A DNA stretch of 64,000 bases from an uncultured Burkholderiales bacterium. Its GTDB lineage: Bacteria; Pseudomonadota; Gammaproteobacteria; Burkholderiales; JALYOK01. The stretch spans positions 2,572 to 66,571 of the forward strand of contig CAZAWU010000002.1 of NCBI GenBank assembly GCA_964488915.1, read 5' to 3'. Below, one piece after another: positions 39,503-64,000 of the stretch. Under the pieces are notes generated by a model, which saw only the letters and a list, made by a program, of their open reading frames with translations, had not been told where the DNA came from and made no database searches. The translations under genes were made by a program, and so were the position numbers. How positions within the stretch are numbered: position 1 is the stretch's first letter; each line of letters starts with the position of its first letter.

Positions 39503-39654
39503 CCGCCCGCCGCACCGCCACTTTTACGAACCTTTTACAAACTCTTCACCAACACCTCACCACTCATTCACGCCGCCTGACTAGTCTTCGCACTGAGCCG
39601 CGACCCGCTTTGGGCGCGGCGGCTAAAGGACTAACAAGGACAAAGGAAACGGCG

Positions 39655-40992: not shown

Positions 40993-41060
40993 CAGTAACC
41001 GAGACAGTCGCCGCCGCGTGAATAGCCGCGGCGGCGTTTTCGATCGGATGAGCGAAACGC

Positions 41061-42632
41061 TTGCGCCGTAAAGCCCTAATCGCCCTGCTTCTTATCGTCG
41101 TCCTGCCGGTCGCGGCGTTGGGCTGGCTGGGCTTGCGCCTGCAAAGCAGCGAACGCCAAGCGTTAGAGCATCGCGTGCAGACGCTGATCGATGCGCAACT
41201 GGTCGCCATCGACGATTCACTGAGCGCCTATTTCACCGCCCGCCGCGGCGAGTTGCTTGCGGAGATCGATGCGCTCGCCGACGGTACCGCAGCCCTGCGC
41301 AACTATGCACGCGAGCGGCCTCTGGTGCGGCAGGTCTTTATCATGGACGCGAAAGGCGAGCGCCTGCACCCACCGACCAACGCAGCGCTGACCGAAGCCG
41401 AGCGGCGCTTTCTCCAGCGCAGCGCCGACATCTGGCGCAATCGCGACATTCTCTACCAAAGCGTCGAGGCGCTGCCCCCGCAAGAACAGTCGAGCAACGG
41501 CGAGCCGAAGCGCAGCGACGGTTGGTACGTGTGGCATTGGGGCACAGAAACGGACCTCATCTTCTGGCGGCGCAGCGCACAGCGCCTGATCGGTATCGAA
41601 CTCGAACCGGCACGTGTGAAAGCCGACTTGATCGCCCTATTGCCGGCCAGCGGTAGCGCCGATGACAGGCTCGGGCAGGCGCGCGTGCAATTGATCGACG
41701 ATCGCGGCACCGTGGCTTACCAGTGGGGCGCGTATCAACCCAAGGCCGAAGCAAAAGCCTTGGCGCTGCGGCCGCTTAGCCACCCGCTCGGCAGTTGGAA
41801 GTTGGCCTACTACGCGCCGGCCGTTGCCGCCGGCGGCGGCGCGCGTGCTCTTACCCTCGGCAGCGCACTCGCCGCGCTGGCGCTGGCGCTCGGCGGGCTG
41901 GGTTGGTTCTTGTATCGTGAGCACACGCGCGCAGCGCGCTTGGCCGCGCAGCGCGTCAACTTCGTCAATCAGGTATCGCACGAACTGAAAACGCCGCTGA
42001 CGAATATTCGCATGTACGCCGAACTGCTGAACGAACACATCGAAGCCGCCGAGGAAAAACCGCGCCGCTACCTCGACATCATCGTCGCCGAGAGCCAACG
42101 CTTGTCGCGCCTAATCTTGAACGTACTTAGCTTCGGACGCATGCAGCGCGAGGTGCTGCGGCTGCATCGCCAACCGGGCTGCGTCGATGACGTAGTCGGC
42201 GCGACGCTGGAGGCATTTCGCCCGGCGTTGGAGACCAAGGCCATGGCGATCTCGTTCGCGCGCGGCGCACCCGCTACCGTCAGCCTCGACCGCGATGCGC
42301 TCGAGCAAATCCTCAACAATCTGTTCAGCAACGTCGAAAAGTACGCGGCCGGCGGCGCGCGCTTGGAAGTGACCACATCGCAAGATGCGCGGCGCAGCAC
42401 CGTGCGTGTGCGCGACTACGGTGCCGGCATTCCCAGACGCGAGCGCGAGCGCATCTTCGAACCCTTCTATCGCCTGAGCTCCAAACTCAGCGATGGCGTC
42501 ACCGGCACCGGTATCGGCTTGACTATCGCACGCGAACTGGCGCGCCAACACGGCGGCGATCTGCAGCTACTCGACAGCGAACCCGGCGCGCTCTTTGAAG
42601 TAAGTTTGGAGACAGCCGGAGGTCCGACATGA
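41061..42632 (+). CDS. two-TM sensor histidine kinase with a large periplasmic domain
   Basis: 523 aa, TTG start. H-box VSHELKTPLTNIRMYAELL and an HATPase_c domain (GTGIGLTIARELARQHGG). Confidence 0.88.
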   Translation: MRRKALIALLLIVVLPVAALGWLGLRLQSSERQALEHRVQTLIDAQLVAIDDSLSAYFTARRGELLAEIDALADGTAALRNYARERPLVRQVFIMDAKGERLHPPTNAALTEAERRFLQRSADIWRNRDILYQSVEALPPQEQSSNGEPKRSDGWYVWHWGTETDLIFWRRSAQRLIGIELEPARVKADLIALLPASGSADDRLGQARVQLIDDRGTVAYQWGAYQPKAEAKALALRPLSHPLGSWKLAYYAPAVAAGGGARALTLGSALAALALALGGLGWFLYREHTRAARLAAQRVNFVNQVSHELKTPLTNIRMYAELLNEHIEAAEEKPRRYLDIIVAESQRLSRLILNVLSFGRMQREVLRLHRQPGCVDDVVGATLEAFRPALETKAMAISFARGAPATVSLDRDALEQILNNLFSNVEKYAAGGARLEVTTSQDARRSTVRVRDYGAGIPRRERERIFEPFYRLSSKLSDGVTGTGIGLTIARELARQHGGDLQLLDSEPGALFEVSLETAGGPT

Positions 42633-43315
42633 AAGTGCTGGTCGCCGAAGACGATGCGCACATCCGTCGCGGGCTGCAAGATCTGCTCGAAGGCGAGGGT
42701 TACACCACCATCGCCGCGCCCGACGGCGACCAAGCGCTGGCGCTGTTCGGCAGCGAACGGCCCGACTTTGTGCTGCTCGACATCATGATGCCCAAGAGCG
42801 ACGGCTACCAAGTATGCCGCGAGATCCGGCGCGTGAACGCCGAGGTGCCAGTGATTTTCATCTCCGCCAAGTCGGAGGAGATCGACCGCGTGGTCGGCTT
42901 GGAACTCGGCGCGGACGATTTCATCATGAAACCATTCGGCACGCGCGAAGTTGTCGCGCGCATCCGCGCAGTCACGCGTCGCTGTCTGCGCCGCAGTGAG
43001 GAAACCGCTGCAGCGCAAGTCTTGCGCATGGGTGATTTGGAAGTGCTGCCGGCCGAACTGCGTGCGCGCCGGGGCGATCATGTTATTGAGCTGAGTCTGC
43101 GCGATGTGCGCATCCTGCAGCTGCTGCACCGCCAGCGCGGCAAAGTCGTCAGCCGCGAAGAGTTGTACAGCGAATGCTGGGGCCGCGCGCATTTTCCCAG
43201 CAGTCGCACGCTCGATCAGCACGTCTCAAAGCTGCGCAAAGCGATCGAGCTCGATGCGCGCAACCCTGCCATCGTTCTCACCGTGCACGGTATCGGCTAC
43301 CGCTACGACGGTTAG
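42629..43315 (+). CDS. OmpR-family response regulator
   Basis: 228 aa. Receiver domain (VLLDIMMPKSDG) plus winged-helix output (TVHGIGYRY). ATGA overlap with the kinase stop. Confidence 0.92.
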   Translation: MKVLVAEDDAHIRRGLQDLLEGEGYTTIAAPDGDQALALFGSERPDFVLLDIMMPKSDGYQVCREIRRVNAEVPVIFISAKSEEIDRVVGLELGADDFIMKPFGTREVVARIRAVTRRCLRRSEETAAAQVLRMGDLEVLPAELRARRGDHVIELSLRDVRILQLLHRQRGKVVSREELYSECWGRAHFPSSRTLDQHVSKLRKAIELDARNPAIVLTVHGIGYRYDG

Positions 43316-43418
43316 CCACGCACAAGTCCGGGCGCGCCCGCCTCGGCTTCGTCGTATCTCGGCGAGTCGCTGGGTTATACTCGTTCGAGCCCGCTTTCGC
43401 TTTACTACCACACTTGAC

Positions 43419-44441
43419 ATGAATCGCAACGACGCTCTGCTCGCGGATTGGCATGCGCGTGCCCAACGTCTCCAAGACGAGGTACGCCATGCGGTGATCG
43501 GTCAGGACCCCATCGTGAAACTGATCGCCACTGCCATATTCGCGCGCGGCCATGTGCTGCTCGAAGGCGATGTCGGCGTCGGCAAGACCACCATGCTGCG
43601 CGCGTTCGCGCGCGCCGTCGGCGGAGCGTTTGCGCGCGTAGAAGGCACGGTCGATCTGCTACCGAACGATCTGCTCTACTACACCTACATCGCCGCCGAC
43701 GGCAACCCGCGCGTCGATCCGGGTCCACTGCTGCAGCATGAAGACCGGTTATCAATCTTCTTTTTCAATGAGATCAATCGCGCGCGCCCGCAAGTGCACT
43801 CGCTGCTGTTGCGCGCAATGGCGGAGAAGACCGCGTACGCTTTCAGCCGCGAGTACAGCTTCCCGCATTTGACGGTGTTCGCCGACCGCAACCGCGTGGA
43901 GAAGGAGGAGACATTCGAAATCTCCTCCGCGGCGCGCGATCGCTTCATGTTCGAGTTGCAGGTGGAAACGCCGCGCGACGAGCCGACGCAGCGTGCGCTC
44001 ATGTTCGATCCGGTGTTCCATGATACCGAGCTGCTGCTCGAGCGCGTCGCCGCCGCGGTGCTGCCGTATGCCGAACTAAACGTCATCGGCGCGCTCATTC
44101 AAGAAGAGGTGCGTGCAAGCCCCGAGTTGGAGCGCTACGCGCTGCAACTTTGGCAGGCCACGCGTGCGCCGCAGGATTTCGGCGTGCGCATCGATGGGGT
44201 CAACATGGCGCTGTTGCTCGCAGCCGGTGCCAGCCCGCGCGGCATGAGCATGCTGCTACGTGCCGCACGCGTCACCGCCTGGCTCGACAATCGCACGTTC
44301 GTCACGCCGGAGGATATCCACGGCGTATTTGGCCCGGCGATAGTGCATCGCATCTTTCTGAGCCCGGTGTACGAATTGCGCCGCGCCGAGATCGCCCACG
44401 CGCTCGCAGCGCAGATTCTCGCCAAGATTGCCGCGCCTTAA
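43419..44441 (+). CDS. MoxR-family AAA+ ATPase
   Basis: Start at ATG 43419 (MNRNDALLADW...). Walker A LLEGDVGVGKTTM and Walker B region IFFFNEINRARPQV. About 340 aa. Confidence 0.9.
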   Translation: MNRNDALLADWHARAQRLQDEVRHAVIGQDPIVKLIATAIFARGHVLLEGDVGVGKTTMLRAFARAVGGAFARVEGTVDLLPNDLLYYTYIAADGNPRVDPGPLLQHEDRLSIFFFNEINRARPQVHSLLLRAMAEKTAYAFSREYSFPHLTVFADRNRVEKEETFEISSAARDRFMFELQVETPRDEPTQRALMFDPVFHDTELLLERVAAAVLPYAELNVIGALIQEEVRASPELERYALQLWQATRAPQDFGVRIDGVNMALLLAAGASPRGMSMLLRAARVTAWLDNRTFVTPEDIHGVFGPAIVHRIFLSPVYELRRAEIAHALAAQILAKIAAP

Positions 44442-44518
44442 CTTATACCGGCAGCAGGATTATCCAGTCTGTCAAAATACACAACATTCTTCATAGAATA
44501 GAACGTACAGTATTAACG

Positions 44519-45421
44519 ATGTCGGGACAGATCCATTACCGCATTGCCTGGCGCGCCCGCACTGCTTTCCCCGGTGCGCATGCAAGCACGCAAAGCGGCG
44601 GCGGGCAGGAATTCAGTCATCACGTGCCGCTCATCGACGCGCCCGATCCGCGCCGGCTCGACCTGCATGCTTCGCTCAAAGATGCGTTCGGCAGTTGGCT
44701 GGTGCGGCGCTTCCGCCAGCGCAGCGGCATCTCCGTTTATGTGCTGGCGGACCTATCGGCTTCGATGGGATTTCGCGGTCGCGCGCATAAACTCAACACC
44801 CTCGCCGACCTCACGCAAGCGCTCGCCTACTCCGCGCATCGCAGCGGCGACCGGTTCGGATTTTTCGGTTGTGGCGAAAGTTTGCGCGCAGAGTGGTTTT
44901 TGCCCGCAAGCCAACAAGCGGGCGCCGGCCTCGCGCTGGCTGAGCGGCTGCGACAGTACACCCCCACGGACACGCATGCGGACGGGTTGCTGGAGGGTTG
45001 CGCTCACATCGCGCGGCAGCGCTCGTTGGTATTCCTGGTGTCGGACTTTCACTTCGATCTGGCTCTGCTCGACGAATTGCTCGCCCGGTTGACACGGCAT
45101 CAAGTGATCCCGGTGGTACTGTGGGATCGCGCCGAGTTCGAAACACCGGCGCGCTGGGGCTTGGCGCGCCTGCGCGATGCGGAATCGCAGCGGACGCGCT
45201 TCGTCGTTCTGACACCGCGGTTTGCAGCCGATCTGTCGCGGCTGTTCGCGCAACGCCGTGCGCTGCTCGCCGCGCGCTTCATGCAGCAACAGACCAAACC
45301 GCTGTTCCTGTTCGACGGCTTCGATGCCGATCTCATTACCGCCTATTTCCACTCCGACGCTCCCGGCGACCCGGTCAGCGCTGACGACGATGGCCAAGCG
45401 ATTCCTGCTTACGCTCACTAG
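44519..45421 (+). CDS. DUF58-family protein (MxaS-like)
   Basis: Start at ATG 44519. VWA-like degenerate MIDAS VLADLSASMGF. Always found next to MoxR ATPases. About 300 aa. Confidence 0.8.
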   Translation: MSGQIHYRIAWRARTAFPGAHASTQSGGGQEFSHHVPLIDAPDPRRLDLHASLKDAFGSWLVRRFRQRSGISVYVLADLSASMGFRGRAHKLNTLADLTQALAYSAHRSGDRFGFFGCGESLRAEWFLPASQQAGAGLALAERLRQYTPTDTHADGLLEGCAHIARQRSLVFLVSDFHFDLALLDELLARLTRHQVIPVVLWDRAEFETPARWGLARLRDAESQRTRFVVLTPRFAADLSRLFAQRRALLAARFMQQQTKPLFLFDGFDADLITAYFHSDAPGDPVSADDDGQAIPAYAH

Positions 45422-46304
45422 CGCGCTGCTCGCGTGCTCGCTGCGCGGCGCGGCCGCGGCCCCGGTTGTGCAAGAACTCTCCAATACTGTCTCGCAGCAT
45501 TTCGGCTTACTGGTCGGCGACCGGTTCACACAGCAGGTGCGTGTCGCGGTGGCGGCGCCGCACGAGCTCGATCGCAATTCATTGCCAAAGAAGGGGCGCG
45601 CCAACCGCTGGCTCGAATTGCAACACGTCGAGCTCAGCCACACTGCTGCCGCCACGGCGCACGACTACCTACTGACGCTGAAGTACCAAGTGATCACGAG
45701 TGACGAGATCGTCAGTCTCGCCGCGCTGCCGCGCCCGGCCCTGCGCTTCAGCGCTGCCGGGATGGAATCGCTCGCACTGCGCCTGGGCGAACAGCACGTG
45801 AGCATCTCGCCCATCAGCGATACCGATGCTTGGGAGCGCGAGGGCTTGCAGGCGCTGCGCCCGGAGCATGGGACGCCGCTCATGGACGTGACCGCGACGA
45901 AACAGCGCATGGCGGGCTACGCCGCGGCATTGGCGCTGCTTGGATTGTTCTGGCTCTATCGCATCTACGGTGCGCCGTTTGTTGCCCGCAGCCGCGGCCC
46001 GTTCATGCGCGCCTGGCGCGCTTTGCGACGACAACAGGCCGGCGATGCCGCCGCGCTTCGCAGTGCGATGTTGCAACTGCATCGTGCCTTCGACGCTACT
46101 TTCGGCAAGAGCGTTTTACGCAGTGAAGTCGAGACTTTTCTTGTGCAGCACCCACGCTTCGCGGCGCAGCGCGACGCCATCGAGCGTTTCTTCGACGCCT
46201 CGCGCTACGCGTTTTACGGCGATGCCGGCGGCAGCGCAGCGACTCTGGCCGAGTTGCGTGAGTTCGCTCGGCGCTTGAGTTTGGTCGAGCGAGGATTGAC
46301 GTGA
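45390..46304 (+). CDS. signal-peptide plus single-TM protein of the MoxR/VWA cluster (position of MxaA / BatD-like)
   Basis: ATG 45390 (MAKRFLLTLTSALLACSL...). Internal TM GYAAALALLGLFWLYRIYG. Overlaps the DUF58 gene end by 32 nt. The assignment rests on position only. Confidence 0.55.
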   Translation: MAKRFLLTLTSALLACSLRGAAAAPVVQELSNTVSQHFGLLVGDRFTQQVRVAVAAPHELDRNSLPKKGRANRWLELQHVELSHTAAATAHDYLLTLKYQVITSDEIVSLAALPRPALRFSAAGMESLALRLGEQHVSISPISDTDAWEREGLQALRPEHGTPLMDVTATKQRMAGYAAALALLGLFWLYRIYGAPFVARSRGPFMRAWRALRRQQAGDAAALRSAMLQLHRAFDATFGKSVLRSEVETFLVQHPRFAAQRDAIERFFDASRYAFYGDAGGSAATLAELREFARRLSLVERGLT

Positions 46305-47272
46305 AGTTTGAGTATTCGTGGGCGCTCCTGTTGCTGCCGCTCGCGCTGCTAGCTCTGTTCGGCCGCAGCCGCAGCGCGCTCACCTATCCTTGGCTTGCGC
46401 TGACACCGCGGCACCGCGCTTCGACTCTGCTCGATTGGCTGCTGCGCGCGTTGCTCCTGCTGGCGCTGGCGGGGCTGGCGTTCGCGTTGGCACGGCCGTA
46501 CCAGCCGGAAGCGCGCGTCGAGCGCTACGGGCGCGGCGCGCAGATCGTGCTGCTGCTCGATCGCAGCCGCAGCATGGATCAAGGCTTCGGCCGCCGCGAA
46601 GGCGACGGTTCCGGCGAAAGCAAGGCGCGGGTGGCGCAGCGACTGCTGCTGCAATTCACCGCCAAACGCCGCGACGATCTGTTCGGCATGATGGCTTTCA
46701 GCGGTTTGCCGATCCCGGTGGCCGATTTCACGCAGCAGCCCGAGTTCGTGCGCGCCGCCATCGCGGCGACGACATTGGACAAAGGCTTGTCGGAAACAGA
46801 CATCGGCCGCGGTCTGCTCGCCGCACTGCACTATTTCGACGATCGCCCCTACACCGGCTCGCGCATCGTGCTGCTGGTTTCCGATGGCGGCGATCGCATT
46901 GACGTCGATCTACGCCAAGAGATCACGCGCCTGGCGCGCTTGCATCGAGTCGGACTCTATTGGATTTACATACGCTCCTTCTACAGCCCCGGGCTGAAAG
47001 ACGTTTCGGACGAGTACGCGCAGACCGTGCCAGAGATGTTTCTGCATCGCTTCTTCCAATCTCTCGGCGTGCCCTATCGCAACTACGAGGCCGAGGATCC
47101 GGAAGCGATGGCGCGCGCAATCGAAGACGTGAACCGCTTGGAGACGCTGCCGATCCGCTACCAAGCCGTGCTAGCGCGCCAAGACCTCGCGCATTGGGGT
47201 TATGCGGTGGCTTTTGTCGCACTGGCATTGGTCGCCGCCGCGCGCTTTGCCGAACGCACGCGCTGGGCATGA
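46301..47272 (+). CDS. membrane-anchored VWA domain protein (BatA/MxaC-like)
   Basis: 323 aa. N-terminal MKFEYSWALLLLPLALLALF (BatA-type N-terminus) and MIDAS LLLDRSRSMDQ. GTGA overlap with the upstream stop. Confidence 0.85.
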   Translation: MKFEYSWALLLLPLALLALFGRSRSALTYPWLALTPRHRASTLLDWLLRALLLLALAGLAFALARPYQPEARVERYGRGAQIVLLLDRSRSMDQGFGRREGDGSGESKARVAQRLLLQFTAKRRDDLFGMMAFSGLPIPVADFTQQPEFVRAAIAATTLDKGLSETDIGRGLLAALHYFDDRPYTGSRIVLLVSDGGDRIDVDLRQEITRLARLHRVGLYWIYIRSFYSPGLKDVSDEYAQTVPEMFLHRFFQSLGVPYRNYEAEDPEAMARAIEDVNRLETLPIRYQAVLARQDLAHWGYAVAFVALALVAAARFAERTRWA

Positions 47273-47829
47273 GCACGCGCACGTTGCCGCGCTCCGCACG
47301 GTGGAGTATCGCCGCCGCCTTACTGTTGTTGGCGTTGCTCGCGTTCGAGACGTGGCGCTTGCAGCAGCAGCAAGGCGTCAACGCGCGCGTTCTTGCAGAA
47401 AATCCGCAGACGCTCTCCGCGACCGATGCGCTGGAAGTGATTCATGCCGAAGCGCTGCGTCTAGGGCATGCCGGCAAAGCACGCGAGGCGCATGAATTGT
47501 ATGCGCGCGTGGCGATGCACGGCTCGCGCGAGTTGCGGCTGCGCGCGGAATACAACCACGCTAACTTGTTGTTGCGTGAAGCGCTGGCGCTGCGCGGCGA
47601 CAGTGAAACGGACGACGGACGTTCACTTCCCGTGCTGGAGCTGGCCAAGGAGTCGTACCGTAAGGTGCTGCGCGAAGCGCCGGAAATTTGGGACGCACGC
47701 TACAACTTGGAACGCGCTTTGCGCCTTGCGCCTGAGCCGCCCGAGGTGGAGGAAGGCGCCGGCCCGGCCCCGCGCCAGCGCGAGCGTGCCCCGACGACTA
47801 TGCGCGGGGAAACTTTGGGGTTGCCATGA
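47269..47829 (+). CDS. small TM / TPR-like protein (BatC/MxaK-like position)
   Basis: ATG 47269 (ATGA overlap). TM SIAAALLLLALLAF followed by a helical-repeat-like region ending ...WDARYNLERALRL. Confidence 0.55.
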   Translation: MSTRTLPRSARWSIAAALLLLALLAFETWRLQQQQGVNARVLAENPQTLSATDALEVIHAEALRLGHAGKAREAHELYARVAMHGSRELRLRAEYNHANLLLREALALRGDSETDDGRSLPVLELAKESYRKVLREAPEIWDARYNLERALRLAPEPPEVEEGAGPAPRQRERAPTTMRGETLGLP

Positions 47830-48788
47830 AGCTGCGCTTGCGCAAGGGCGAGGCTTGGGCGCTGCTGACCGCCCTGTTGCTGATCGCAGCGGCGCTGCTG
47901 CGGCCCAGCATGCAACGCAGCGGCGCGCTGCATTCGTTGCTGATAGTAATCGACATCACGCAGAGCATGAACGTGCGCGACGTTCGGCTCGAAGGTCAGC
48001 CGGCTAGCCGGCTGGTGGCGGCGAAATCCGCCGTTCGCCAAACCATGCTCGACCTGCAATGCGGTTCGCGCGTCGGGCTCGCTGTTTTCAGCGAATACCG
48101 GACCCTCACGCTGTTCGCGCCGGTCGAGGTATGCGCCAATTTCACCGAACTGAGCGCGGCGCTCGAGCGCATCGACGGCCGCATGTCTTGGGCCGGCGCC
48201 AGCGAAATCGCCAAAGGCGTGAGTTTCGCGCTGCGCACACAACACGCCTTAGCAGAGCGCCCGTTGATCGTATTCTTCACCGACGGGCACGAGTCGCCTC
48301 CGCTCGATCCGCGCTTTCGCACTCGCTTCGACTCGATGCCGGGACCAGAGCGCGGCGTTTTCGTCGGCATGGGCGGCGATCGGCCGGCGCCGATCCCCAA
48401 GTTTGGCCCAGCGGGGCAGCCGCTGGGGTTCTGGCGCGCCGACGAAGTGCTGCACGACGATCCGCACAACCTCGGGCGCGGCGGCAGCGTGCGCGAGGAA
48501 GGCACCGTAGACGAGAGCGGCGCACAGATCGCGGCCAAGCGCACCGGCAACGAACACTTATCGTCGCTGCGCGAGCACTACCTGCGCGGCTTGAGCGAGG
48601 AAACGGGGTTCGGTTACGTGCGTTATGCCGACGCGCTACAGACTAGCGCCGCACTGCGGGCGTTACCGCCAAGCAAAGTGGCGCGCTCCGCCGTGGCTAT
48701 CGATTGGCTACCGGCCGCCGCCGCGCTGCTAGTGCTTGTGGCAACATTGCTGACCGGCCTGCTGCCGCGCCGATCCGCCTTGGCCTGA
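47826..48788 (+). CDS. membrane-anchored VWA domain protein (BatB/MxaL-like)
   Basis: 320 aa. N-terminal TM, MIDAS IVIDITQSMNVRD, C-terminal TM. ATGA overlap with the upstream stop. Confidence 0.85.
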   Translation: MKLRLRKGEAWALLTALLLIAAALLRPSMQRSGALHSLLIVIDITQSMNVRDVRLEGQPASRLVAAKSAVRQTMLDLQCGSRVGLAVFSEYRTLTLFAPVEVCANFTELSAALERIDGRMSWAGASEIAKGVSFALRTQHALAERPLIVFFTDGHESPPLDPRFRTRFDSMPGPERGVFVGMGGDRPAPIPKFGPAGQPLGFWRADEVLHDDPHNLGRGGSVREEGTVDESGAQIAAKRTGNEHLSSLREHYLRGLSEETGFGYVRYADALQTSAALRALPPSKVARSAVAIDWLPAAAALLVLVATLLTGLLPRRSALA

Positions 48789-48790
48789 CC

Positions 48791-50230
48791 ATGCTCTACT
48801 ATCCGCGCTCGTTCTTAAAGCTCATTCTGTTGGCCTTGACGCTGGTCACGCTGCCGCTCGGCTTCGCCTTTTACACCGCGGCGAAATCGATCGACCGCCT
48901 CGCCAACCAAAGCCAACGCGCGGTGTACGAAGCCGTGCAAGCCACGCAAGCCGGCAAGACGCTGCGCGACCGTGTGGTGGACCTAGAGCGGGCGGCGCGG
49001 CAATACTTGGTGCTGGAAGAGCCCACGGTGTTTGAAGCCTACAAGAAGATCCACGGCGATTTCGTCAATGCCGCGCGCGGCCTCGAGACCAACCCGCTCG
49101 ATCCCGAGCAGAGGAAGCAGCTCAAGCAACTGGTCGAACGCGAAGCCAAACTCTACGGCACACTGCTGGCCACACCCGACCGCTCCTTCGATGTGAAGAC
49201 CATGATCGGCGAATACGAAGGGCTCGGCAAATCCGCGCAGCAACTTTATCGCAGCACCGATGCGCTGGTAGAGCGCCAAGTGGAAACGATGCGCAGCGCC
49301 ACGGCCAAAGCGCAAGAAACCATCTTTTGGCAAGGCATCGCGTTGGTGCCGCTTGCGGTGCTGGTGGCGATCGGCGCCACCATTCTGATCACGCGGCCAT
49401 TCGAGCAGATCAACGACGCCATCCGCCAAATGGGTGATGGTGAGCTGCTCAAACCGGTCAAAGTCGTTGGTCCACACGATCTAGTCAACTTGGGCCGCCG
49501 GCTGGATTGGCTGCGCTTGCGCTTGCTCGAGCTCGAACAGCAGAAGAACAAATTCTTGCAGCGCATCTCCCACGAACTGAAAACGCCGTTGACCGCCCTG
49601 CGCGAAGGCAGCGAGCTGTTAGCCGACGAGGTGGTCGGCAAGCTGACCGAACAACAGCGCGAGGTGTGCACGATCCTGCGCCACAAATCGGTTCAGTTGC
49701 AGCGCCTGATCGAAAACTTGCTCAACTACAGCGCTACCGAATTCCACCGCGCGCTGCCGCGACCGGAACTCATCGATCTCTCAGCGATCCTAACGAAGGT
49801 AGTAGCCGAACAAAAACTCGCGTTGCGCGCACGCGGTTTGCGCTGCAAGTACGAAGGAACGCCGATCCAACTCGAAGCCGATCCCGAGATGCTTCGGGTC
49901 ATCTTCGATAACCTGTTGTCAAATGCAATCAAGTTTTCCCCGCAGGGGGGCGCGATTATAATCAGTGGTGCCGTGCGCGTACCGCACGCAATCATCGAAG
50001 TAGCAGATCAGGGCCCAGGCGTCGGCGATGCGGATATGCACCGCATATTCGATGCATTCTACGAGGGACAGGCGCCGGCGGAGAGCCCCGTCAAAGGCAG
50101 CGGTCTAGGGTTAGCCATCTGCCGCGACTACGTGAATGCGCACCACGGGCGGATCGAGGTCGTGCCCGGCGTCGCCTCCGGCGCGCTCTTCCGGGTAACG
50201 TTACCACTAGAACAAGGCCCACAAACATGA
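48791..50230 (+). CDS. sensor histidine kinase (two TM, HAMP, HisKA, HATPase; GlrK/QseE-like architecture)
   Basis: ATG 48791, 2 nt after the VWA gene stop. H-box ISHELKTPLTALREGSELL and G-box GSGLGLAICRDY. About 479 aa. Confidence 0.88.
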   Translation: MLYYPRSFLKLILLALTLVTLPLGFAFYTAAKSIDRLANQSQRAVYEAVQATQAGKTLRDRVVDLERAARQYLVLEEPTVFEAYKKIHGDFVNAARGLETNPLDPEQRKQLKQLVEREAKLYGTLLATPDRSFDVKTMIGEYEGLGKSAQQLYRSTDALVERQVETMRSATAKAQETIFWQGIALVPLAVLVAIGATILITRPFEQINDAIRQMGDGELLKPVKVVGPHDLVNLGRRLDWLRLRLLELEQQKNKFLQRISHELKTPLTALREGSELLADEVVGKLTEQQREVCTILRHKSVQLQRLIENLLNYSATEFHRALPRPELIDLSAILTKVVAEQKLALRARGLRCKYEGTPIQLEADPEMLRVIFDNLLSNAIKFSPQGGAIIISGAVRVPHAIIEVADQGPGVGDADMHRIFDAFYEGQAPAESPVKGSGLGLAICRDYVNAHHGRIEVVPGVASGALFRVTLPLEQGPQT

Positions 50231-50997
50231 ACGCTAGAACAACGACGATAACAGCGATCGTATTGCACTTGGCGGCTTGCACGCCGCTCGAACCGGTCGC
50301 GCAACCGAACACGCCGCCGCCCGTGCCGATTATCCAGGCGCGTAGCAGCGACACGGATTTGCTGCTCGCGCGCTTCGAAGTAACGCGCACTTTTTCCAAG
50401 GAAGAGCTTAAAGCGGAAACAGCCAGCGCGCAACGCCGGCTCGCCACCATGCCGACGCCGTACGCGCGCACCGAGTTGGCGTTGTTGTTGAGCGCTCCGC
50501 ATGCCGAAACGCGCGATCTGCCGCAGGCATTGAAATTGCTTCAGGATGTCATACGAGATGCGCAAAGCAGCGGCGCGTTAAAAAACTTTGCTTCCGCACT
50601 GCATGAGCATTTGACTGCGGCGGCGCGGCAAGAAGAGAACGTCTCCAATTTGTCACAGCGAGTGAGCGCCGAACGCAAGCGCGCGGATCAACTCCAAACC
50701 AAACAGGATGGCGCTGCCCAACAATTCGAACAAAAACTCAAGGACGAGCAAAAGCGCTTGGAAGCGGTCATCAACCGGCAGGAAGAGAACATCCAGCAAC
50801 TCACCGGAAGACTGCGCGAAGAACAAAAACGCGCCGACGACTTGCAGGAAAAGCTCGACGCAATCATGAAGATCGAGAAGAGCTTGATCGAGCGTCAGCA
50901 AACCAAGGAGGCGCCGCCAAAGGAAGCAGCGCCCAAGGAAACACCGAAAGAATCACCCAAGGACATACCGAGAGAAGCGCCGAAGGAACCCAAGTAA
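50227..50997 (+). CDS. coiled-coil lipoprotein with a Pro-Lys-Glu repeat tail (QseG-like position)
   Basis: Lipobox VLHLAAC, long Q/E/K/R-rich helical region, tail EAPPKEAAPKETPKESPKDIPREAPKEPK. ATGA overlap with the kinase stop. Confidence 0.75.
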   Translation: MNARTTTITAIVLHLAACTPLEPVAQPNTPPPVPIIQARSSDTDLLLARFEVTRTFSKEELKAETASAQRRLATMPTPYARTELALLLSAPHAETRDLPQALKLLQDVIRDAQSSGALKNFASALHEHLTAAARQEENVSNLSQRVSAERKRADQLQTKQDGAAQQFEQKLKDEQKRLEAVINRQEENIQQLTGRLREEQKRADDLQEKLDAIMKIEKSLIERQQTKEAPPKEAAPKETPKESPKDIPREAPKEPK

Positions 50998-50999
50998 GC

Positions 51000-52358
51000 A
51001 TGACCACTCCTTACAAAATTCTGCTCGTCGATGATGACTTGGAGATATTGCGGCTGATATCGATCCGGCTCACCGGCGCTGGCTATCAAGTGACCGCGCT
51101 GGACAGCGCGGAGAAAGCCTTGGCCAGTTTGCAGCAAACGCGCCCGCATATCGTCGTCACCGATTTGAAAATGAGCGGGATGAGCGGCATGGCGCTATTC
51201 GACGCCGTGCAGACAATCAACCCGGCGCTGCCGGTGATCGTCCTAACCGCGCACGCGACAGTACCGGATGCGGTGGAAGCGACAAAGCGCGGCGTGTTCG
51301 GCTATTTGACCAAACCGTTTGACAGCAAGGTTCTGCTTGCGCACATCGAGCGCGCGCTCGCGCTGAGCGGTAATAGCGCGGGGCCGGCCGATGCCGGTGC
51401 GGACTGGCGCCAAGATATCGTCACACGTAGCGCGCGCATGGAAGATTTGCTTAGCCAGATACTGCTGGTGGCGGACAGCGATGCCAGCGTTCTCATTCAA
51501 GGTGAGAGCGGCACCGGCAAGGAAATGTTGGCGAAGGCGCTGCACAAGGCCAGCCGGCGCCGCGACCGCCCGTTTGTGGCGATCAATTGCGGCGCCATCC
51601 CCGAAGCGCTGCTCGAGTCGGAGCTATTCGGTCACACCAAGGGGTCTTTCACCGGTGCGATGCGCGATCATCAAGGCCTATTCGTCGCTGCTAACGGCGG
51701 GACGTTGTTGCTCGACGAGATTGGCGACATGCCGCTGGCGCTGCAAGTCAAGCTGCTGCGCGTGCTGCAAGATCGCGCGGTGCGCCCCGTCGGTTCGACG
51801 CAAACCCAGGCGGTCGATGTGCGCATTATCTCCGCGACGCATCGCAATCTCGAACAGCACATGGCGCAAGGCCAATTCCGTGAGGATTTGTTCTACCGCC
51901 TGAACGTCGTCTCCTTGGTGGTGCCGCCGCTAGCCGAGCGCCGCGAGGACGTGCCGCTGCTTGCCACATACTTTCTCAATAAACTGGCGCAACGCTACCG
52001 CAAACACATTACCGGATTCGCACCCGATGCGATGGAGGCATTGGTGAGCGCAGCTTGGCCAGGAAACGTGCGCCAGCTCATCAATGTCGTCGAGCAAGCG
52101 ATGGCGCTTTGCACCACGCCGATCGTGCCCCTCTCACTAGTGCAGAAGTGCTTGCAGGGCGAGCACGAGACCATCCCGTCGTTTGAAGACGCGCGCCGGC
52201 GCTTTGAACGTGACTACCTCATTCAGGTACTAAAGATAACCAACGGCAACGTGACGCACGCAGCACGCCTTGCTCGCCGCAACCGCACTGAGTTCTACAA
52301 GCTGCTGCAACGCAACCAGCTCGACCCGGGCACCTTCAAAGCCGAGGCGCACGCCTAA
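51000..52358 (+). CDS. sigma-54-dependent response regulator (NtrC family; GlrR/QseF-like)
   Basis: 452 aa. Receiver domain, AAA+ domain with GESGTGKEMLAKALH and ESELFGHTKGSFTGA (GAFTGA-type loop), and a C-terminal Fis-type HTH. Confidence 0.93.
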   Translation: MTTPYKILLVDDDLEILRLISIRLTGAGYQVTALDSAEKALASLQQTRPHIVVTDLKMSGMSGMALFDAVQTINPALPVIVLTAHATVPDAVEATKRGVFGYLTKPFDSKVLLAHIERALALSGNSAGPADAGADWRQDIVTRSARMEDLLSQILLVADSDASVLIQGESGTGKEMLAKALHKASRRRDRPFVAINCGAIPEALLESELFGHTKGSFTGAMRDHQGLFVAANGGTLLLDEIGDMPLALQVKLLRVLQDRAVRPVGSTQTQAVDVRIISATHRNLEQHMAQGQFREDLFYRLNVVSLVVPPLAERREDVPLLATYFLNKLAQRYRKHITGFAPDAMEALVSAAWPGNVRQLINVVEQAMALCTTPIVPLSLVQKCLQGEHETIPSFEDARRRFERDYLIQVLKITNGNVTHAARLARRNRTEFYKLLQRNQLDPGTFKAEAHA

Positions 52359-52383
52359 CTGCGTCCCTGGAGCGCACTTGTGT

Positions 52384-52401
52384 TGTCTCCATTCGGAGAC
52401 A
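52384..52401. promoter_or_regulatory. TGTC-N10-GACA palindrome (candidate enhancer/UAS 1)
   Basis: TGTCTCCATTCGGAGACA; the extended palindrome is TTGTCTCC-ATTC-GGAGACAA. Lies about 170 bp upstream of the -12 element. Confidence 0.45.
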
Positions 52402-52449
52402 AATAAAGTGATTATTTTTCAAGCCTCTGGGATTGGCAACGGACTGCAA

Positions 52450-52467
52450 CGTCGCCGATCGGCGACA
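52450..52467. promoter_or_regulatory. cGTC-N10-GACA palindrome (candidate enhancer/UAS 2)
   Basis: CGTCGCCGATCGGCGACA; the core GTCGCCGATCGGCGAC is a perfect 16-nt palindrome. Lies about 105 bp upstream of the -12 element. Confidence 0.4.
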
Positions 52468-52522
52468 GATCAAGTGCGCCGACCTTCGTCGCGATCGCTA
52501 TGTCCTCTCCGTTTTCCTGGTA

Positions 52523-52535
52523 TATCAATCACTTA
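52523..52535 (+). promoter_or_regulatory. candidate IHF site
   Basis: TATCAATCACTTA matches WATCAANNNNTTR at every defined position. Lies in an A/T-rich tract between the palindromes and the -24 element. Confidence 0.35.
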
Positions 52536-52551
52536 ACAATCAATTCTGAAT

Positions 52552-52567
52552 TGGCACGTTGTCTGCT
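52552..52567 (+). promoter_or_regulatory. sigma-54 (-24/-12) promoter
   Basis: TGGCACGTTGTCTGCT, with GG at 52553-52554 and GC at 52565-52566. The spacing is exactly that of TGGCACG-N4-TTGCW (11/12 of the fixed consensus positions by my count). Confidence 0.6.
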
Positions 52568-52576
52568 ACCTCTTGC

Positions 52577-52672
52577 GTAGATCGCCGTTTGGCGCAGGCA
52601 GCAGCATCCGAATAAGTTGTCACTGTGCTGCGGGGCAAGTTGGCCCAAAGGCCGGCAAGCCCCGCGTTTTTT
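52577..52672 (+). ncRNA. candidate sigma-54-dependent small RNA or terminator-containing leader (about 95 nt)
   Basis: The predicted start is about 12 nt after the -12 GC. Internal hairpins are CGCC-GUUU-GGCG (52583-52594) and GCAGCA/UGCUGC (52601-52606 / 52626-52631). It ends in the intrinsic terminator at 52630-52672. The 5-prime end is predicted only. Confidence 0.4.
52630..52672 (+). terminator. rho-independent terminator
   Basis: Outer stem GCGGGGC (52630-52636) / GCCCCGC (52659-52665), inner stem TTGGCC/GGCCGG, loop CAAA, followed by TTTTTT (52667-52672). Confidence 0.75.
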
Positions 52673-52711
52673 GCACAAGGGACGCAACCACAAAACCAGG
52701 AGTCAGAACTT

Positions 52712-52963
52712 ATGTCTTCAAGCGCGAGGACGCTATGCGCGACCTGCCAGTGCAAGACCGTGGAGTTTGTAATCGCTTTTTCCGGGCCGACCAGTTGTAG
52801 ATCCGCCGACGTCTGCCGCTACGATGAACCAGGCTACCCCTGGAAGATCTATTGCGACAAGTACAAGACGCACGCCGCTCCCGCGCATCTCACCGCCGTT
52901 TCCTCAGAACAGCTCGTTGCGCAAACGGGCACCGATAATACAAGAGGGGTTCATGCAAACTGA
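52712..52963 (+). CDS. small Cys-rich hypothetical protein (83 aa)
   Basis: SD AGGAG (52698-52702) 9 nt before ATG 52712. MSSSARTLCATCQCKTVEF...CRSADVCRYDEPGYPWKIYCDKY, with six Cys. No family recognised. Confidence 0.4.
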   Translation: MSSSARTLCATCQCKTVEFVIAFSGPTSCRSADVCRYDEPGYPWKIYCDKYKTHAAPAHLTAVSSEQLVAQTGTDNTRGVHAN

Positions 52964-53150
52964 AAGCGAAGCCACCGTAAACCCGCCGCAGACCCGCGAC
53001 TACAAACTCGGCTTCATGTCACGCCGCCGCCGTCTGCGTAACCGCTGGAACATTCACATGCGCAAGGATGAGCGGGCGCAAGCGAAAACGAATCGCAACG
53101 ACGCTGCCGTTGATAAGCCGACGCAGTCGCTCGCAGCAAACCAAAAGTAA
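52953..53150 (+). CDS. small basic hypothetical protein (65 aa)
   Basis: SD-like AGAGGGG before ATG 52953. MQTESEATVNPPQTRDYKLGFMSRRRRLRNRWNIHMRKDERAQAK... Overlaps the previous ORF end by 11 nt. Confidence 0.3.
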   Translation: MQTESEATVNPPQTRDYKLGFMSRRRRLRNRWNIHMRKDERAQAKTNRNDAAVDKPTQSLAANQK

Positions 53151-53178
53151 CTAACTTCACTCGCCGGCGCCTACACGC

Positions 53179-54180
53179 TTAAGCGTAGCGGCTGAGCAAC
53201 TCCAAATTGTCGCGGTAAGGATGGGCGGTCATCAGCGCGCCAGCTGTGGCCGCGTGCATCGACATGCGCAAAGCCGCCGCATGGTCCTGGTAGGGCGGGA
53301 ATGCAGCGAGGAGCTCGTCGGCCACATCCGGGGCATTGCATACTAGCACCATGTTACAGCCGGCATTAAGTGCCCGTGCCACTCTCCCTTGAATACCTCC
53401 GTCTGCTTGTGCGCCTTCCATGCTCAAATCGTCGCTGAAAATAACCCCCTGAAAGGCCAACCGCATGCGCAAAATCTGCTGTAGCCAGAACGGCGAGTAA
53501 CCCGCCGGAAGAGCATCGACCGCTGGGTAGATCACGTGCGCCGGCATCACCCCTCCGAGTAGCGGCGCCAGCCGGGCGAACGGGACCAGGTCGGACTGCT
53601 CGATCTGCGCAAAGCTGCGCGCATCCGTCGCCACTTCGTGATGTGTATCGGCGCGCACATAGCCATGACCGGGGAAATGCTTCGCCACAGCGCGCACACC
53701 GGCGGCGCCCAAGCCCTCGATCAATGCGGTGCCCAGCGCAGCCACCGCCTGCGCGTCGCTATGCAGCGCGCGATCGCCAATGACGCTGCTCGAGCCGTAG
53801 TCCAGATCAAGCACCGGTGCGAAACTAAAGTCCACGCCGTGGCTGCTCAGTTCGGTGCCGATGATGGATCCGACCGCGCGCGCAAGCGATTCGCCCGCGC
53901 GCTGGTCTGAATCCCACACCTGCCCTAAGTGGCGCATCGGTGGAATCGCAGTGAACCCGCTGCGGAAACGCTGGACGCGGCCACCTTCGTGATCTGCCGC
54001 AATCAGCAAGGGCGGATCGCGCAGATTGCGGATCGCGTGAGTCAACGCGCGCAGCTGCCGTGGCGACTCGTAGTTGCGCGCGAACAAAATTACACCGCCG
54101 ACGCGCGGATGAGCTAGGCGGCGCCGATCCTCGTCGGTCAGTTCAGTGCCGGCGACGTCCAACATTACGGGTCCAAGCAT
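53179..54180 (-). CDS. nagZ: beta-N-acetylhexosaminidase
   Basis: 333 aa. [37 protein letters not shown] and the GH3 motif KHFPGHG. Confidence 0.92.
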
Positions 54181-61220: not shown

Positions 61221-62609
61221 TCACCCAGCGCCAAGGCGCAGCGTGATGAACTGGGTCGACTCTCCGCGCTTGACCAGCAGAGCGACGTTGCGCCGCCCTT
61301 CGAGTTTGGCCACGGCCTGGTTGAACTGATCGAGGTTCTTTACTTCGGTGTTGTTGATGGACAGAACAACGTCTCCGGCCCGGATGCCCGCCTTGCTCGC
61401 CGGTCCCTGCGCATCCTCAACCAGCAGCCCGGACTCGACGTCGAGCTGTTTGCGCTGCTCGGCGGTGAGTTCGGACAGCGTCAGACCAAGCTTGTTGCCC
61501 TCGCTCTTACCCTTCTTGGGCGTCTTAGACGAGGCTATCTTTTCCTGCGGCAGTTCGGCCAAGGTTACGGCGATGTCCTTGGTCTGGCCGTCTTTGCTTT
61601 GCCCCTTGCTGCGCCAGACCTGCACGTTTACTTTGCTGCCTGGTTTGGTGGCCGCCACCAAGCGCGGCAGATCGTTCGACGTGTTTACCGGCTTGCCGTC
61701 GAACTTAAGAATGACGTCGCCCGGCTCGAACCCAGCTTTATCCGCCGGCCCGCCGCGCTCCACCGAGGCGATGACCGCCCCTGCGGGCTTCGGCAAACCC
61801 AAGGAATCGGCCAAATCCTTGGTCACTTCCTGAATTACCACCCCTAGCCAACCACGGCTGACTTTGCCGCTTTTGCGCAACTGATCGGATACGTCCATGG
61901 CCACATCGATGGGAATGGCGAACGACAGGCCCATGAACCCACCGGTGCGGCTGTAAATCTGCGAATTGATACCGACGACTTCCCCTTTCATGTTGAAAAG
62001 CGGGCCGCCGGAATTGCCTGGGTTGATCGCCACGTCGGTCTGTATAAACGGCACGTAATTCTCCTGCGGTAGCGCACGCCCTTTGGCACTTACAATGCCG
62101 GCGGTGACCGTATTCTCGAAACCGAATGGCGAACCGATCGCCACCACCCATTCGCCGACTCGCAGCTGATTCGGATCTCCCATGGTGAGCTTGGGCAGAC
62201 CGGCCGCTTCGATTTTGATCAACGCCACGTCGGTGCGCTTATCGGCGCCGATGACTTTGGCTTTGAACTCGCGCTTGTCGGTAAGCGTCACCGTGATGTC
62301 GTCGGCGGCGGCTACGACGTGCGCATTGGTCAAGATATAGCCGTCGGCGCTGATGATGAAGCCCGAGCCGAGCGAACGGTTGTCCTCGTCGCGTGGGCCC
62401 GGCTGTTGCGGGCCGAAGCGCCGGAAGAACTCGAACATCGGGTCATCTTCCGGGATGCCTTCCATACCGCGTGCAGCCGAGGTGGTGCTGACGTTCACCA
62501 CAGCCGGCCCTTGTTTCTCGGCTAGATCGGTGAAATCCGGCAGTTCGCGCCCCAGAGCGGCGCCGGCAAAAGTAAGGCTGGTGATGCAAAGCAGAAAAAA
62601 TCGGTTCAT
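61221..62609 (-). CDS. degP: periplasmic serine endoprotease DegP/MucD (HtrA family, two PDZ domains)
   Basis: 462 aa. Signal peptide, catalytic region GNSGGPLFN, and tandem PDZ domains. Position downstream of rseB and the rseC-like gene. Confidence 0.93.
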   Translation of the reverse strand: MNRFFLLCITSLTFAGAALGRELPDFTDLAEKQGPAVVNVSTTSAARGMEGIPEDDPMFEFFRRFGPQQPGPRDEDNRSLGSGFIISADGYILTNAHVVAAADDITVTLTDKREFKAKVIGADKRTDVALIKIEAAGLPKLTMGDPNQLRVGEWVVAIGSPFGFENTVTAGIVSAKGRALPQENYVPFIQTDVAINPGNSGGPLFNMKGEVVGINSQIYSRTGGFMGLSFAIPIDVAMDVSDQLRKSGKVSRGWLGVVIQEVTKDLADSLGLPKPAGAVIASVERGGPADKAGFEPGDVILKFDGKPVNTSNDLPRLVAATKPGSKVNVQVWRSKGQSKDGQTKDIAVTLAELPQEKIASSKTPKKGKSEGNKLGLTLSELTAEQRKQLDVESGLLVEDAQGPASKAGIRAGDVVLSINNTEVKNLDQFNQAVAKLEGRRNVALLVKRGESTQFITLRLGAG

Positions 62610-62693
62610 GCGTGTGTACGCTCAAGACGCGTCAAAGAGATAAAAATTCTACTTGGTTTGGCGTGGCCGTGCGGCCGCCAAAGGCGGCTTGGC

Positions 62694-63011
62694 CTAGCCG
62701 TGGCGGCGAGAATGGCGCCGCAGCGCGTACCAGCCGCAGAGTGCGGCAACGACGAGCGCTGCCACGGCCAGCCAGTCCTGCGTGATTTGCAGGCGTGCGA
62801 ACAAGGCCAGTGTCGCCGCGAACAAGGCCAGCGGCAGCGCGAACGCCCGCAACCCCAGCCCCAAGAACTGGCCGGCAGCGCGCTCGGACTGCGCCGCGCT
62901 GCCGCGGAGCTTGCGGCCCGGAAGCAAACCGAACCAAAGGCGGCAGCCGTGCATACCGCATTCGTTACTGCATGCAGTTGCGTCTGAAGTGTCGCAACCA
63001 GGTTGATTCAT
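62694..63011 (-). CDS. short RseC/MucC-like membrane protein
   Basis: 105 aa. Cys cluster CSNECGMHGC followed by two hydrophobic helices. Position between rseB and degP. The alternative overlapping ORF 62632..62961 looks like a shadow frame. Confidence 0.45.
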   Translation of the reverse strand: MNQPGCDTSDATACSNECGMHGCRLWFGLLPGRKLRGSAAQSERAAGQFLGLGLRAFALPLALFAATLALFARLQITQDWLAVAALVVAALCGWYALRRHSRRHG

Positions 63012-63034
63012 GAATGCAATCTCAAGCCAGTATC

Positions 63035-64000
63035 CTACTTTCGCAGGCTAACTGCATTGGCAACTTGCTTGAGCGAAACCTGCGGCACTTCGCCGAGCAC
63101 GGTGATGTGATGATCGTCGAGTTCCTTGGTAAGCACCGAGACGAGCCCGAGCTGGCGCGGGCCACGCAATGCCGGTGGAATACTGCTTTTCGGCTCAATG
63201 AACACCGAGATCGCAGCCAACCCGTCCGAAAACACAATTTGGCGCACCGGCTCCGCGCGCCCGTGCATGCGCCGCTGCATCTCCATTATTTTGCGAAAGC
63301 CCGCCGGGATATCGCGGATGTGCCAACCGCTTTCCGGCGCATTGCGCTCCCAGTTGGACGCATCGGTGCGCCAACTGCGCTGCGCCTCCGCGTAGGCAGA
63401 GCGCAACGATTGGCGCGTTATGTGGGCGCCGATATCCAGGGCGGTGAAAGCCACCTGCTCGGCCGGTTCGCCGCGTTCGTCCGCGATCGCAGCTTTCAGC
63501 AGCAAACCAGTTTTCAGCTCCGCGCACAGGCGATGAGCGTAGCGCAATTGATCCTTGGGGCGCAGCCAAATCACTTGGCAATCGTAGCCCGCCACGCGCT
63601 CCGTCGCGCCGAGCCGCAGCTCATAGTGCGCGACCAGCCCCTCGGGATTGTCGCCGATCAACGCCGGGAAGTAGCGCCGCGCCCGGCCTTGCTCGAGCTT
63701 GACCATGCGGCTTTCCGGGTAGTAGCAGTGCACGGTTTCGTTCTCGCGCACGATCTCGCGCGGCGGGCCATCCAGCGCTTCTAGCTTTTCCGCTTCGCCG
63801 CTGGCGTCGTAGAGATGCGAAATGCGCATGGTTTCCATGCGCGGCCCCAGCTGGTGCACGAACGTCCCGCTATAGGTCAGCTCACGCGCAGCCGCGGCGA
63901 TACGGGGCAACCAATTGCTGGCGTCCGCTGCCGGCTTCTTTTCTTGCGCCAGCACGATGCCGGCGGCGAATAGCGGTAAACAAGCGAGAGCAGCGACTCT
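63035..64000 (-). CDS. rseB: sigma-E regulatory protein RseB/MucB (5-prime end beyond the window)
   Basis: The frame stays open to the window edge and the upstream codons read ...RVAALACLPLFAAGIVLAQEKK (signal peptide), so the gene is 5-prime partial. The body resembles RseB (TFVHQLGPRMETMRISH, VHCYYPESRMV). Confidence 0.8.
   Translation of the reverse strand, partial: RVAALACLPLFAAGIVLAQEKKPAADASNWLPRIAAAARELTYSGTFVHQLGPRMETMRISHLYDASGEAEKLEALDGPPREIVRENETVHCYYPESRMVKLEQGRARRYFPALIGDNPEGLVAHYELRLGATERVAGYDCQVIWLRPKDQLRYAHRLCAELKTGLLLKAAIADERGEPAEQVAFTALDIGAHITRQSLRSAYAEAQRSWRTDASNWERNAPESGWHIRDIPAGFRKIMEMQRRMHGRAEPVRQIVFSDGLAAISVFIEPKSSIPPALRGPRQLGLVSVLTKELDDHHITVLGEVPQVSLKQVANAVSLRK

Follow-up and report, generated by a model that had tools for sequence, protein, structure and literature searches.

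A predicted sigma-54-dependent short RNA that may double as the leader of two small protein genes beside a GlrR-like regulator gene in an uncultured Burkholderiales bacterium

The closest described counterparts of the locus reported here are GlmY and GlmZ, two small RNAs (sRNAs) of the Enterobacterales, with their GlrK/QseG/GlrR system; to our knowledge, the control of sRNAs by GlrR/QseF is known only from that order. In Vibrio, the sigma-54-dependent Qrr sRNAs of about 100 nt are encoded beside the gene of an NtrC-family regulator, LuxO, and combine a long, absolutely conserved unpaired segment with an intrinsic terminator. In Pseudomonas, the sigma-54-dependent RNA CrcZ, of about 400 nt, is encoded immediately downstream of the NtrC-family activator gene of the CbrA/CbrB system; it sequesters Hfq/Crc by repeated A-rich motifs and is not followed by small open reading frames (ORFs). 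We analysed a 64,000-nucleotide stretch of DNA, hereafter the window, from an uncultured Burkholderiales bacterium (assembly GCA_964488915.1, contig CAZAWU010000002.1, positions 2,572 to 66,571), in which a GlrR/QseF-like regulator gene is followed by two palindromes, an IHF-like site, a sigma-54 promoter, an intrinsic terminator and two small ORFs, designated ORF A and ORF B. The evidence is computational throughout and concerns uncultured organisms. The locus would represent an uncatalogued sigma-54 RNA beside its NtrC-family activator in a known layout, with a terminated non-coding transcript predicted in all nine loci that were compared. Its unusual twist would be that the RNA doubles as the leader of two micro-proteins, one of them Arg-rich.

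The locus shares with the GlmY/GlmZ system the regulator family, the kinase-lipoprotein-regulator gene order, the TGTC-N10-GACA sites, an IHF-type site and a sigma-54 promoter. The original prediction had likened its layout to that of sigma-54 sRNAs encoded beside their activator, and the enhancer geometry matches that of Escherichia coli glmY: the activator binding sites (ABS) are spaced 66 bp apart compared to 63 bp at glmY, and lie 95 bp and 161 bp from the -24 GG compared to 100 bp and 163 bp. In both cases the RNA gene abuts the two-component operon, here on the 3′ side of the regulator gene and in the case of GlmY on the 5′ side of the kinase gene. The two systems differ in the number of ABS (two here, three in the GlmY/GlmZ system) and in the length of the RNA, which is about 94 nt here, 184 nt for GlmY and 172-207 nt for GlmZ. 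Unlike GlmY and GlmZ, this locus has co-transcribed small protein genes downstream and a betaproteobacterial host. Alignment of the RNA to E. coli GlmY and GlmZ was at chance level and neither the GlmY_tke1 nor the GlmZ_SraJ family of Rfam matched it; the predicted RNA is, on this comparison, not homologous to GlmY or GlmZ. A heptamer, GUUGUCA, that it has in common with GlmZ just 5′ of the terminator was within chance expectation, and glmS is not encoded within the 64-kb window. The Qrr/LuxO layout also resembles the locus but differs in that there is no sequence relation, the regulator belongs to another subfamily, a single copy is found here and the RNA here is also an mRNA leader. CrcZ occupies the same position after its activator gene and differs from the single conserved segment and the small ORFs found here.

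The regulator matched the NCBIfam model for GlrR best by far (620.8 bits; NtrC 420). Aligned over the whole protein (444 aa), it shared 56% identity with E. coli GlrR, and the recognition helix (GNVTHAAR.A.RNRTEFYKLL) was identical, in agreement with its original description as GlrR/QseF-like. The score of 620.8 bits is below the equivalog cutoff of the GlrR model (763), and the protein is best classed as a divergent betaproteobacterial relative of GlrR, not a strict equivalog. Its close relatives were 89-94% identical, every one from metagenome contigs, and contributed eight different intergenic sequences; one more, far more distant (L100), was reached via ORF B. The comparison set thus consisted of nine distinct loci, eight close and one distant, all metagenomic, and the labels of the metagenome-assembled genomes with related regulators were Burkholderiales or Betaproteobacteria. 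Four-fold degenerate sites in the regulator genes of the relatives showed a pairwise identity of 46-61%, and 13% of them were invariant; neutral sites between the compared genomes are, on this measure, almost saturated. All nine loci, including L100, retained ABS1, ABS2, the -24/-12 promoter, a 22-nt core, the terminator and its U-tract. Conservation at related loci, a check proposed with the original prediction, was thus observed for the promoter, the palindromes and the hairpins. Scans of a metagenome collection gave 0 matches to the exact 22-mer and 0 confirmed matches to the ORF B pattern; that collection evidently does not contain the clade.

The four DNA motifs and the terminator hairpin lie exactly where they had originally been placed (Table 1), and the binding motif cited there for GlrR, TGTCN10GACA, and that for IHF both agree with the consensus sequences of Göpel et al. 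(PMC3045617). The YGTC...GACA of ABS1 showed no variation in the eight close versions and the CGTC...GAC of ABS2 was invariant or nearly so across the compared relatives. In nine of nine loci ABS2 was a perfect inverted repeat, 6 bp or longer, with the inner triplets GCC, TCC, GCT, TCT or GTC; because the repeat stays perfect when the inner triplet changes, the half-sites change together. Symmetry was lower in ABS1 and in the E. coli glmY sites than in ABS2. The IHF-like TCAAT..TTA was retained in six of the eight close relatives and was degenerate in L088, L098 and L100; the TGGCA and TGCT of the promoter were invariant in all nine loci.

Within the 64 kb of the window, YGTC-N10-GACR was found twice (6.2 expected), both times at this locus, TGGCAY-N6-TGCT once (0.38 expected) and WATCAANNNNTTR twice (0.71 expected). 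The single motifs are therefore unremarkable, and the case is made by their ordered clustering within 184 bp behind the GlrR-like gene and, above all, by their conservation. A chance cluster of motifs without function, which would explain why no motif alone is significantly enriched in the window, is effectively refuted by the comparative data: the cluster is ordered and lies behind its cognate regulator, every element of it is conserved in nine loci despite near-saturated neutral divergence, and the ABS keep a fixed 65-66-bp spacing and a helical phasing. The spacing between ABS1 and ABS2 was 65-66 bp in all close relatives and 63-67 bp in more distant ones. The distance from ABS2 to the promoter fell into classes roughly one helical turn apart (63-64, 74, 84-88, 94-98 and 104 bp). 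A Rayleigh test of the ABS-to-promoter distances of 15 promoters, in which their relatedness was ignored, gave R of about 0.6 at periods of 10.5-11 bp (p about 0.005) and no signal at periods of 7, 8 or 13 bp. The distances cluster on one face of the helix. Taken together, the module is very probably a functional, GlrR-type, sigma-54-dependent promoter.

Between 50500 and 54500, the plus strand showed no sigma-70-like promoter. On the minus strand, a sigma-70-like pair of hexamers (TTGCCA-17-AATAAT, 10 of 12 matches) lies between ABS1 and ABS2 (52439..52411) and points towards the 3′-end of the regulator gene; it was rejected as a promoter, its -10 hexamer varying among the relatives. Beside these hexamers, TTTCA (52417-52421) was invariant and is unexplained.

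By analogy with glmY, the RNA would start at 52579. Starts from 52577 to 52579 give a length of 94-96 nt, and 91-107 nt was predicted across the nine loci. The RNA folded with -43.7 kcal/mol (z = -3.6) and none of 200 shuffled sequences folded as well. Its 5′ hairpin, stem-loop 1 (SL1), had a different sequence in every relative and was always present as a hairpin. The 22-nt core that follows was identical in eight distinct sequences and had two changes in L100; by a naive calculation, 22 neutral columns in succession would all be invariant with a probability of about 4e-20. The core is mostly unpaired, is preceded on its 5′ side by AAYAAG and contributes its last 6 nt to the 5′ arm of the terminator. 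The terminator hairpin alone folded with -29.4 kcal/mol. Its outer six pairs were invariant and the seventh was C-G, U-A or U-G; the inner stems varied in sequence between loci and always kept their pairing, that is, they covaried. A simple terminator scan missed the hairpin because its stem has an internal loop. Column-wise covariation statistics were weak because the outer stem never varies and neither the inner stem nor SL1 can be aligned by column; the sequences were instead folded one by one. A covariance model of the RNA (R1) scored 77-108 bits in the close relatives and 32 bits in L100; run over the window and 50 other loci, it detected no further copy. Rfam gave no match at gathering score and none at E<=10 in 52300-53200.

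The core showed no three-base periodicity, and the distance from its GTG to the ATG of ORF A, taken modulo 3, was 0, 2, 1, 0, 0, 2, 2, 0 and 0 in the nine loci, with an in-frame stop in L088. The constraint therefore acts on RNA or DNA and not on protein. For the same reason, an extension of ORF A upstream through the hairpin from the GTG at 52625 was rejected, and the ORFs 52573..52800 and 52625..52963 are artefacts upstream of 52712, which upholds the original statement that these long frames do not explain the hairpin. Constraint without codon periodicity would also be expected of a DNA-level element, in which the 22-mer, at about +36 to +57, is the operator of a repressor or a roadblock, and one half-site, TGTC, and a short inverted repeat, CAC-T-GTG, do occur in the core. 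It has, however, neither full dyad symmetry nor a TGTC-N10-GACA match, and the conserved block runs into the terminator hairpin with both arms conserved and complementary, which points to RNA; we consider an element of this kind very improbable.

ORF A had homologues in all nine loci and in two further loci, L091 and L092, with 57-72% identity and four conserved Cys residues. The differences between them were mainly synonymous, and no signal peptide was found. The only resemblance of ORF A outside this family, a weak one, was the motif C-x5-C-x4-PG(F/Y)P-x-KI, which it has in common with the small (beta) subunit of methanol dehydrogenase (MxaI); the match to Pfam PF02315 was 24.8 bits (cutoff 27), and all six PDB profile matches were MxaI chains (E 0.0015-0.8). 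The AlphaFold2 model of ORF A had a predicted local distance difference test (pLDDT) score of 45.6 and was too poor for a fold search. ORF B contains an invariant Arg-rich motif, F-x-S-RRRRLRNRWNIHMRKDERAQ, in the block RRRRLRNRWN(I/V)xM(R/V)K. Two of 30 third codon positions in this block were invariant, compared to 23-24 of 30 at the first and second positions; since third positions vary freely, ORF B is translated. It had no Pfam, PHROG or PDB match, and its family consisted of six clusters among 1.84 billion representatives. Both ORFs are real genes, translationally coupled and under selection at the protein level. ORF B was present in nine of nine loci with core and terminator and in neither of the two ORF A loci without them (L091 and L092).

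Selection on both ORFs, with no second promoter in sight, implies that read-through occurs and hence that the terminator is leaky or regulated; the unit accordingly has two predicted products, the short RNA that ends at the terminator and the mRNA that continues past it. The original prediction had offered either a stand-alone sRNA or a terminator-containing leader of the two downstream ORFs. The comparative evidence favours the second description. A free-standing RNA gene does not, as ORF A begins 39 nt past the U-tract with no intervening promoter, and the terminated product may nonetheless act as an sRNA. Comparable cases are sRNAs that arise when transcription ends prematurely within a 5′ leader, and tandems such as the Brt RNAs of Bartonella with the Trp DNA-binding proteins encoded downstream (PMC5387305), in which a small protein gene behind a short terminated RNA is reached by read-through only; they differ in promoter type and regulator and have no sequence relation to the locus, which has two coupled ORFs.

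We favour, at about even odds of being correct, a reading in which one sigma-54 promoter has both a short trans-acting regulatory RNA and a read-through mRNA as its outputs. Control would lie with the products of the three genes just upstream, the GlrK-like kinase, the lipoprotein that is its partner and the GlrR-like regulator. The phosphorylated regulator would bind the two YGTC-N10-GACR sites, about 95 bp and 161 bp upstream of the -24 GG, and an IHF-type bend would let it meet the sigma-54 RNA polymerase at TGGCAC-N6-TGCT, with transcription presumably starting at about 52578/9. Most transcripts would end at the terminator (52630-52672), if termination is as efficient as we infer, and give an RNA of about 94 nt made up of the 5′ hairpin, AAYAAG and the unpaired invariant 22-nt segment, the terminator hairpin and the U-tail. 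A minority would read through and allow the translation of ORF A and the coupled ORF B. The short RNA would be a trans-acting riboregulator with the invariant segment as its base-pairing seed, probably assisted by a chaperone. A hairpin, a conserved single-stranded stretch and a terminator, with AAYAAG and a U-tail, are typical of stable trans-acting sRNAs.

Several observations weigh against this reading. Complementarity to the core, examined across the whole 64-kb window and in 156 translation-initiation regions, gave no outlier and no convincing target. The best non-self long contiguous pairing, at about 35230 on the minus strand, was antisense within an ORF of the plus strand, and the sites predicted for pairing in cis with the mRNA of ORF A and ORF B differed in every relative. 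The invariant outer stem of the terminator (6+6 nt) exceeds what a plain terminator needs, and this stem and the overlap of the core with the terminator 5′ arm suit a seed no better than they suit an attenuation site or a site bound by a protein. The strict co-occurrence of core and terminator with ORF B hints at a joint function of the RNA element and ORF B. In addition, the element is present in a single copy per locus and is known from nine distinct loci only, all metagenomic.

The RNA could instead be a plain 5′ leader whose terminator only damps or insulates the expression of the two ORFs, besides stopping transcripts that run on from the regulator operon, the short RNA having no function in trans and the core being kept for a reason at the mRNA level, for example as a site for an RNase, Hfq or a global factor or as the target of another sRNA. 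Its position between the promoter and two real genes without another promoter fits such a role, as do ORF A being the direct cargo of the promoter in relatives and the lack of a strong terminator between the regulator gene and 52630-52672. We nevertheless judge it distinctly unlikely: 22 invariant unpaired nucleotides amid saturated neutral divergence are far more constraint than damping needs, and a 5′ hairpin followed by a conserved stretch that is single-stranded and then by a terminator and U-tail is the usual architecture of stable sRNAs.

The overlap of the core with the terminator 5′ arm, together with an outer stem that is invariant and an inner stem that is free to vary, is what would be expected of a cis-acting attenuator, in which the invariant segment and the lower terminator stem bind a factor that chooses between termination and read-through and the terminated RNA is a by-product. 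In its most specific version, the Arg-rich motif of ORF B would bind the nascent leader and keep transcription from terminating, a positive feedback loop. In favour of attenuation, ORF B is a real protein in which RRRRLRNRWN is invariant, its occurrence follows that of the core and terminator, being found with them in nine loci and absent from L091 and L092, and its family is tiny and confined to this context. This co-occurrence, however, stems from very few independent lineages. Arg-rich peptides usually bind a structured hairpin, whereas SL1, the sole hairpin before the terminator, is not conserved in sequence; there is no conserved alternative antiterminator pairing, ORF B resembles neither phage N nor anything in Pfam, PHROGs or the PDB, and ordinary partial read-through would suffice for the expression of ORF A and ORF B. 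We regard attenuation as unlikely on balance, though it is the main rival of the reading that we favour. The locus and lambda N/nut both have a tiny Arg-rich protein encoded downstream of a terminator that requires read-through, which is a resemblance only: there is no homology to N and no conserved boxB-like hairpin, and the locus is chromosomal and sigma-54-driven.

It is still more doubtful that ORF B is a dedicated Arg-rich RNA-binding micro-protein that recognises the 22-nt segment of the leader and the lower stem, whether as an antiterminator, in a chromosomal, N-like feedback switch coupled to sigma-54, or as a private partner of the RNA. If it were, the RNA element and ORF B would have arisen together as a two-part module between the GlrR-type promoter and an older cargo, ORF A.

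Table 1. Coordinates of the two-component operon, the promoter module, the predicted RNA and the small genes in the window, and of the genes driven by the corresponding module in other loci.
Feature	Position	Strand	Remarks
Sensor histidine kinase, GlrK/QseE-like	48704..50230	+	HAMP, HisKA, HATPase_c; 30% identity to E. coli GlrK over 474 aa, E 1e-66
Lipoprotein at QseG position	50227..50997	+	lipobox LAAC at residues 15-18, long coiled coil, Pro/Lys-rich tail
GlrR/QseF-like sigma-54 enhancer-binding response regulator	51000..52358	+	REC, Sigma54_activat, HTH_8 (Fis-type HTH)
ABS1, TGTCTCCATTCGGAGACA, TGTC-N10-GACA	52384..52401	.	centre 161 bp upstream of -24 GG
ABS2, CGTCGCCGATCGGCGACA, CGTC-N10-GACA	52450..52467	.	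centre 95 bp upstream of -24 GG
IHF-like site, TATCAATCACTTA	52523..52535	+	sequence match
Sigma-54 -24/-12 promoter, TGGCACGTTGTCTGCT, TGGCAC-N6-TGCT	52552..52567	+	sequence match
Predicted short RNA / leader	52578..52672	+	predicted start 52577-52579; 3′ end in U-tract
5′ hairpin SL1 (CGCC GUUU GGCG)	52583..52594	+	per-sequence folding
Core, 22 nt, AAGTTGTCACTGTGCTGCGGGG (RNA AAGUUGUCACUGUGCUGCGGGG)	52614..52635	+	alignment of relatives
Intrinsic terminator, GCGGGGC AA GTTGGCC CAAA GGCCGGC AA GCCCCGC G TTTTTT	52630..52672	+	7-bp outer stem, 7-bp inner stem, CAAA loop, G, U6
Shine-Dalgarno AGGAG of ORF A, inside conserved block AAAACYAGGAGTCAGAA	52698..52702	+	conserved in relatives
ORF A, 83 aa, CxxC...C...C	52712..52963	+	starts 39 nt after U-tract
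ORF B, 65 aa, basic	52953..53150	+	overlaps end of ORF A by 11 nt
Cargo: EF-hand periplasmic proteins	L089 1728-1982; L090 4682-4984		after ABS/sigma-54 module
Cargo: small proteins, hydrophobic signal-peptide-like N-termini	L003 ~7517; L004 ~3425; L001 ~4457		
Cargo: ORF A homologue alone, directly driven	L091 4847-5100; L092 4616-4876		

Betaproteobacterial regulators with 59-79% identity also had ABS and a sigma-54 promoter right after their gene, followed by different cargo (Table 1). The core, the leader terminator and ORF B were all absent from L091 and L092. As these two loci carry ORF A without these elements, ORF A is an older cargo of the promoter, and the core and terminator would have appeared together with ORF B in the lineage of the window and L100. 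In L001, whose regulator is 67% identical, the region 4304-4460 has a sigma-54 promoter, a short hairpin and a U-rich run (GCACGAGCUCGUGU UCGUUAUUUUCUU) and then an ORF, possibly an independent instance of a terminator within the leader that follows a GlrR-type promoter.

The kinase-lipoprotein-regulator order, which is qseEGF-like, was found in the window and in all relatives. The true start of the kinase gene may be further downstream than 48704, because the kinases of the relatives are 477-479 aa long. The lipoprotein at the QseG position had no significant similarity to E. coli QseG (E 0.075). On the 5′ side of the kinase gene, 39610-48788 of the plus strand carries a series of genes with VWA domains (BatA/BatB-like) and also another histidine kinase (41061-42632); VWA genes also adjoin the kinase in the relatives, and the whole may perhaps be one larger unit. 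Downstream of the locus, nagZ, acpS, pdxJ, recO, era, rnc, lepB and lepA are encoded on the opposite strand. Upstream of lepA, the ORFs 61221-62609 and 63035-63955 (minus strand) have N-termini that by eye are DegP/MucD-like and RseB/MucB-like, which suggests that an envelope-stress cluster of the rpoE type lies some 10 kb away from the GlrR-like system; no pair of ABS and sigma-54 promoter was seen at 61221-63955. In E. coli, GlrR/QseF activates rpoE as well.

The locus suggests that in uncultured Betaproteobacteria a GlrR-type system with near-identical enhancer geometry drives an RNA unrelated to GlmY and GlmZ. If so, the connection of this envelope-associated two-component system with riboregulation would go back further than thought, or would have been re-invented more often, with the promoter module conserved and its cargo exchanged between lineages. 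The enhancer, promoter, RNA and two micro-proteins form a compact and testable unit of about 800 bp, in which the strictly co-occurring RNA core and Arg-rich micro-protein offer a lead to a new RNA-protein pair.

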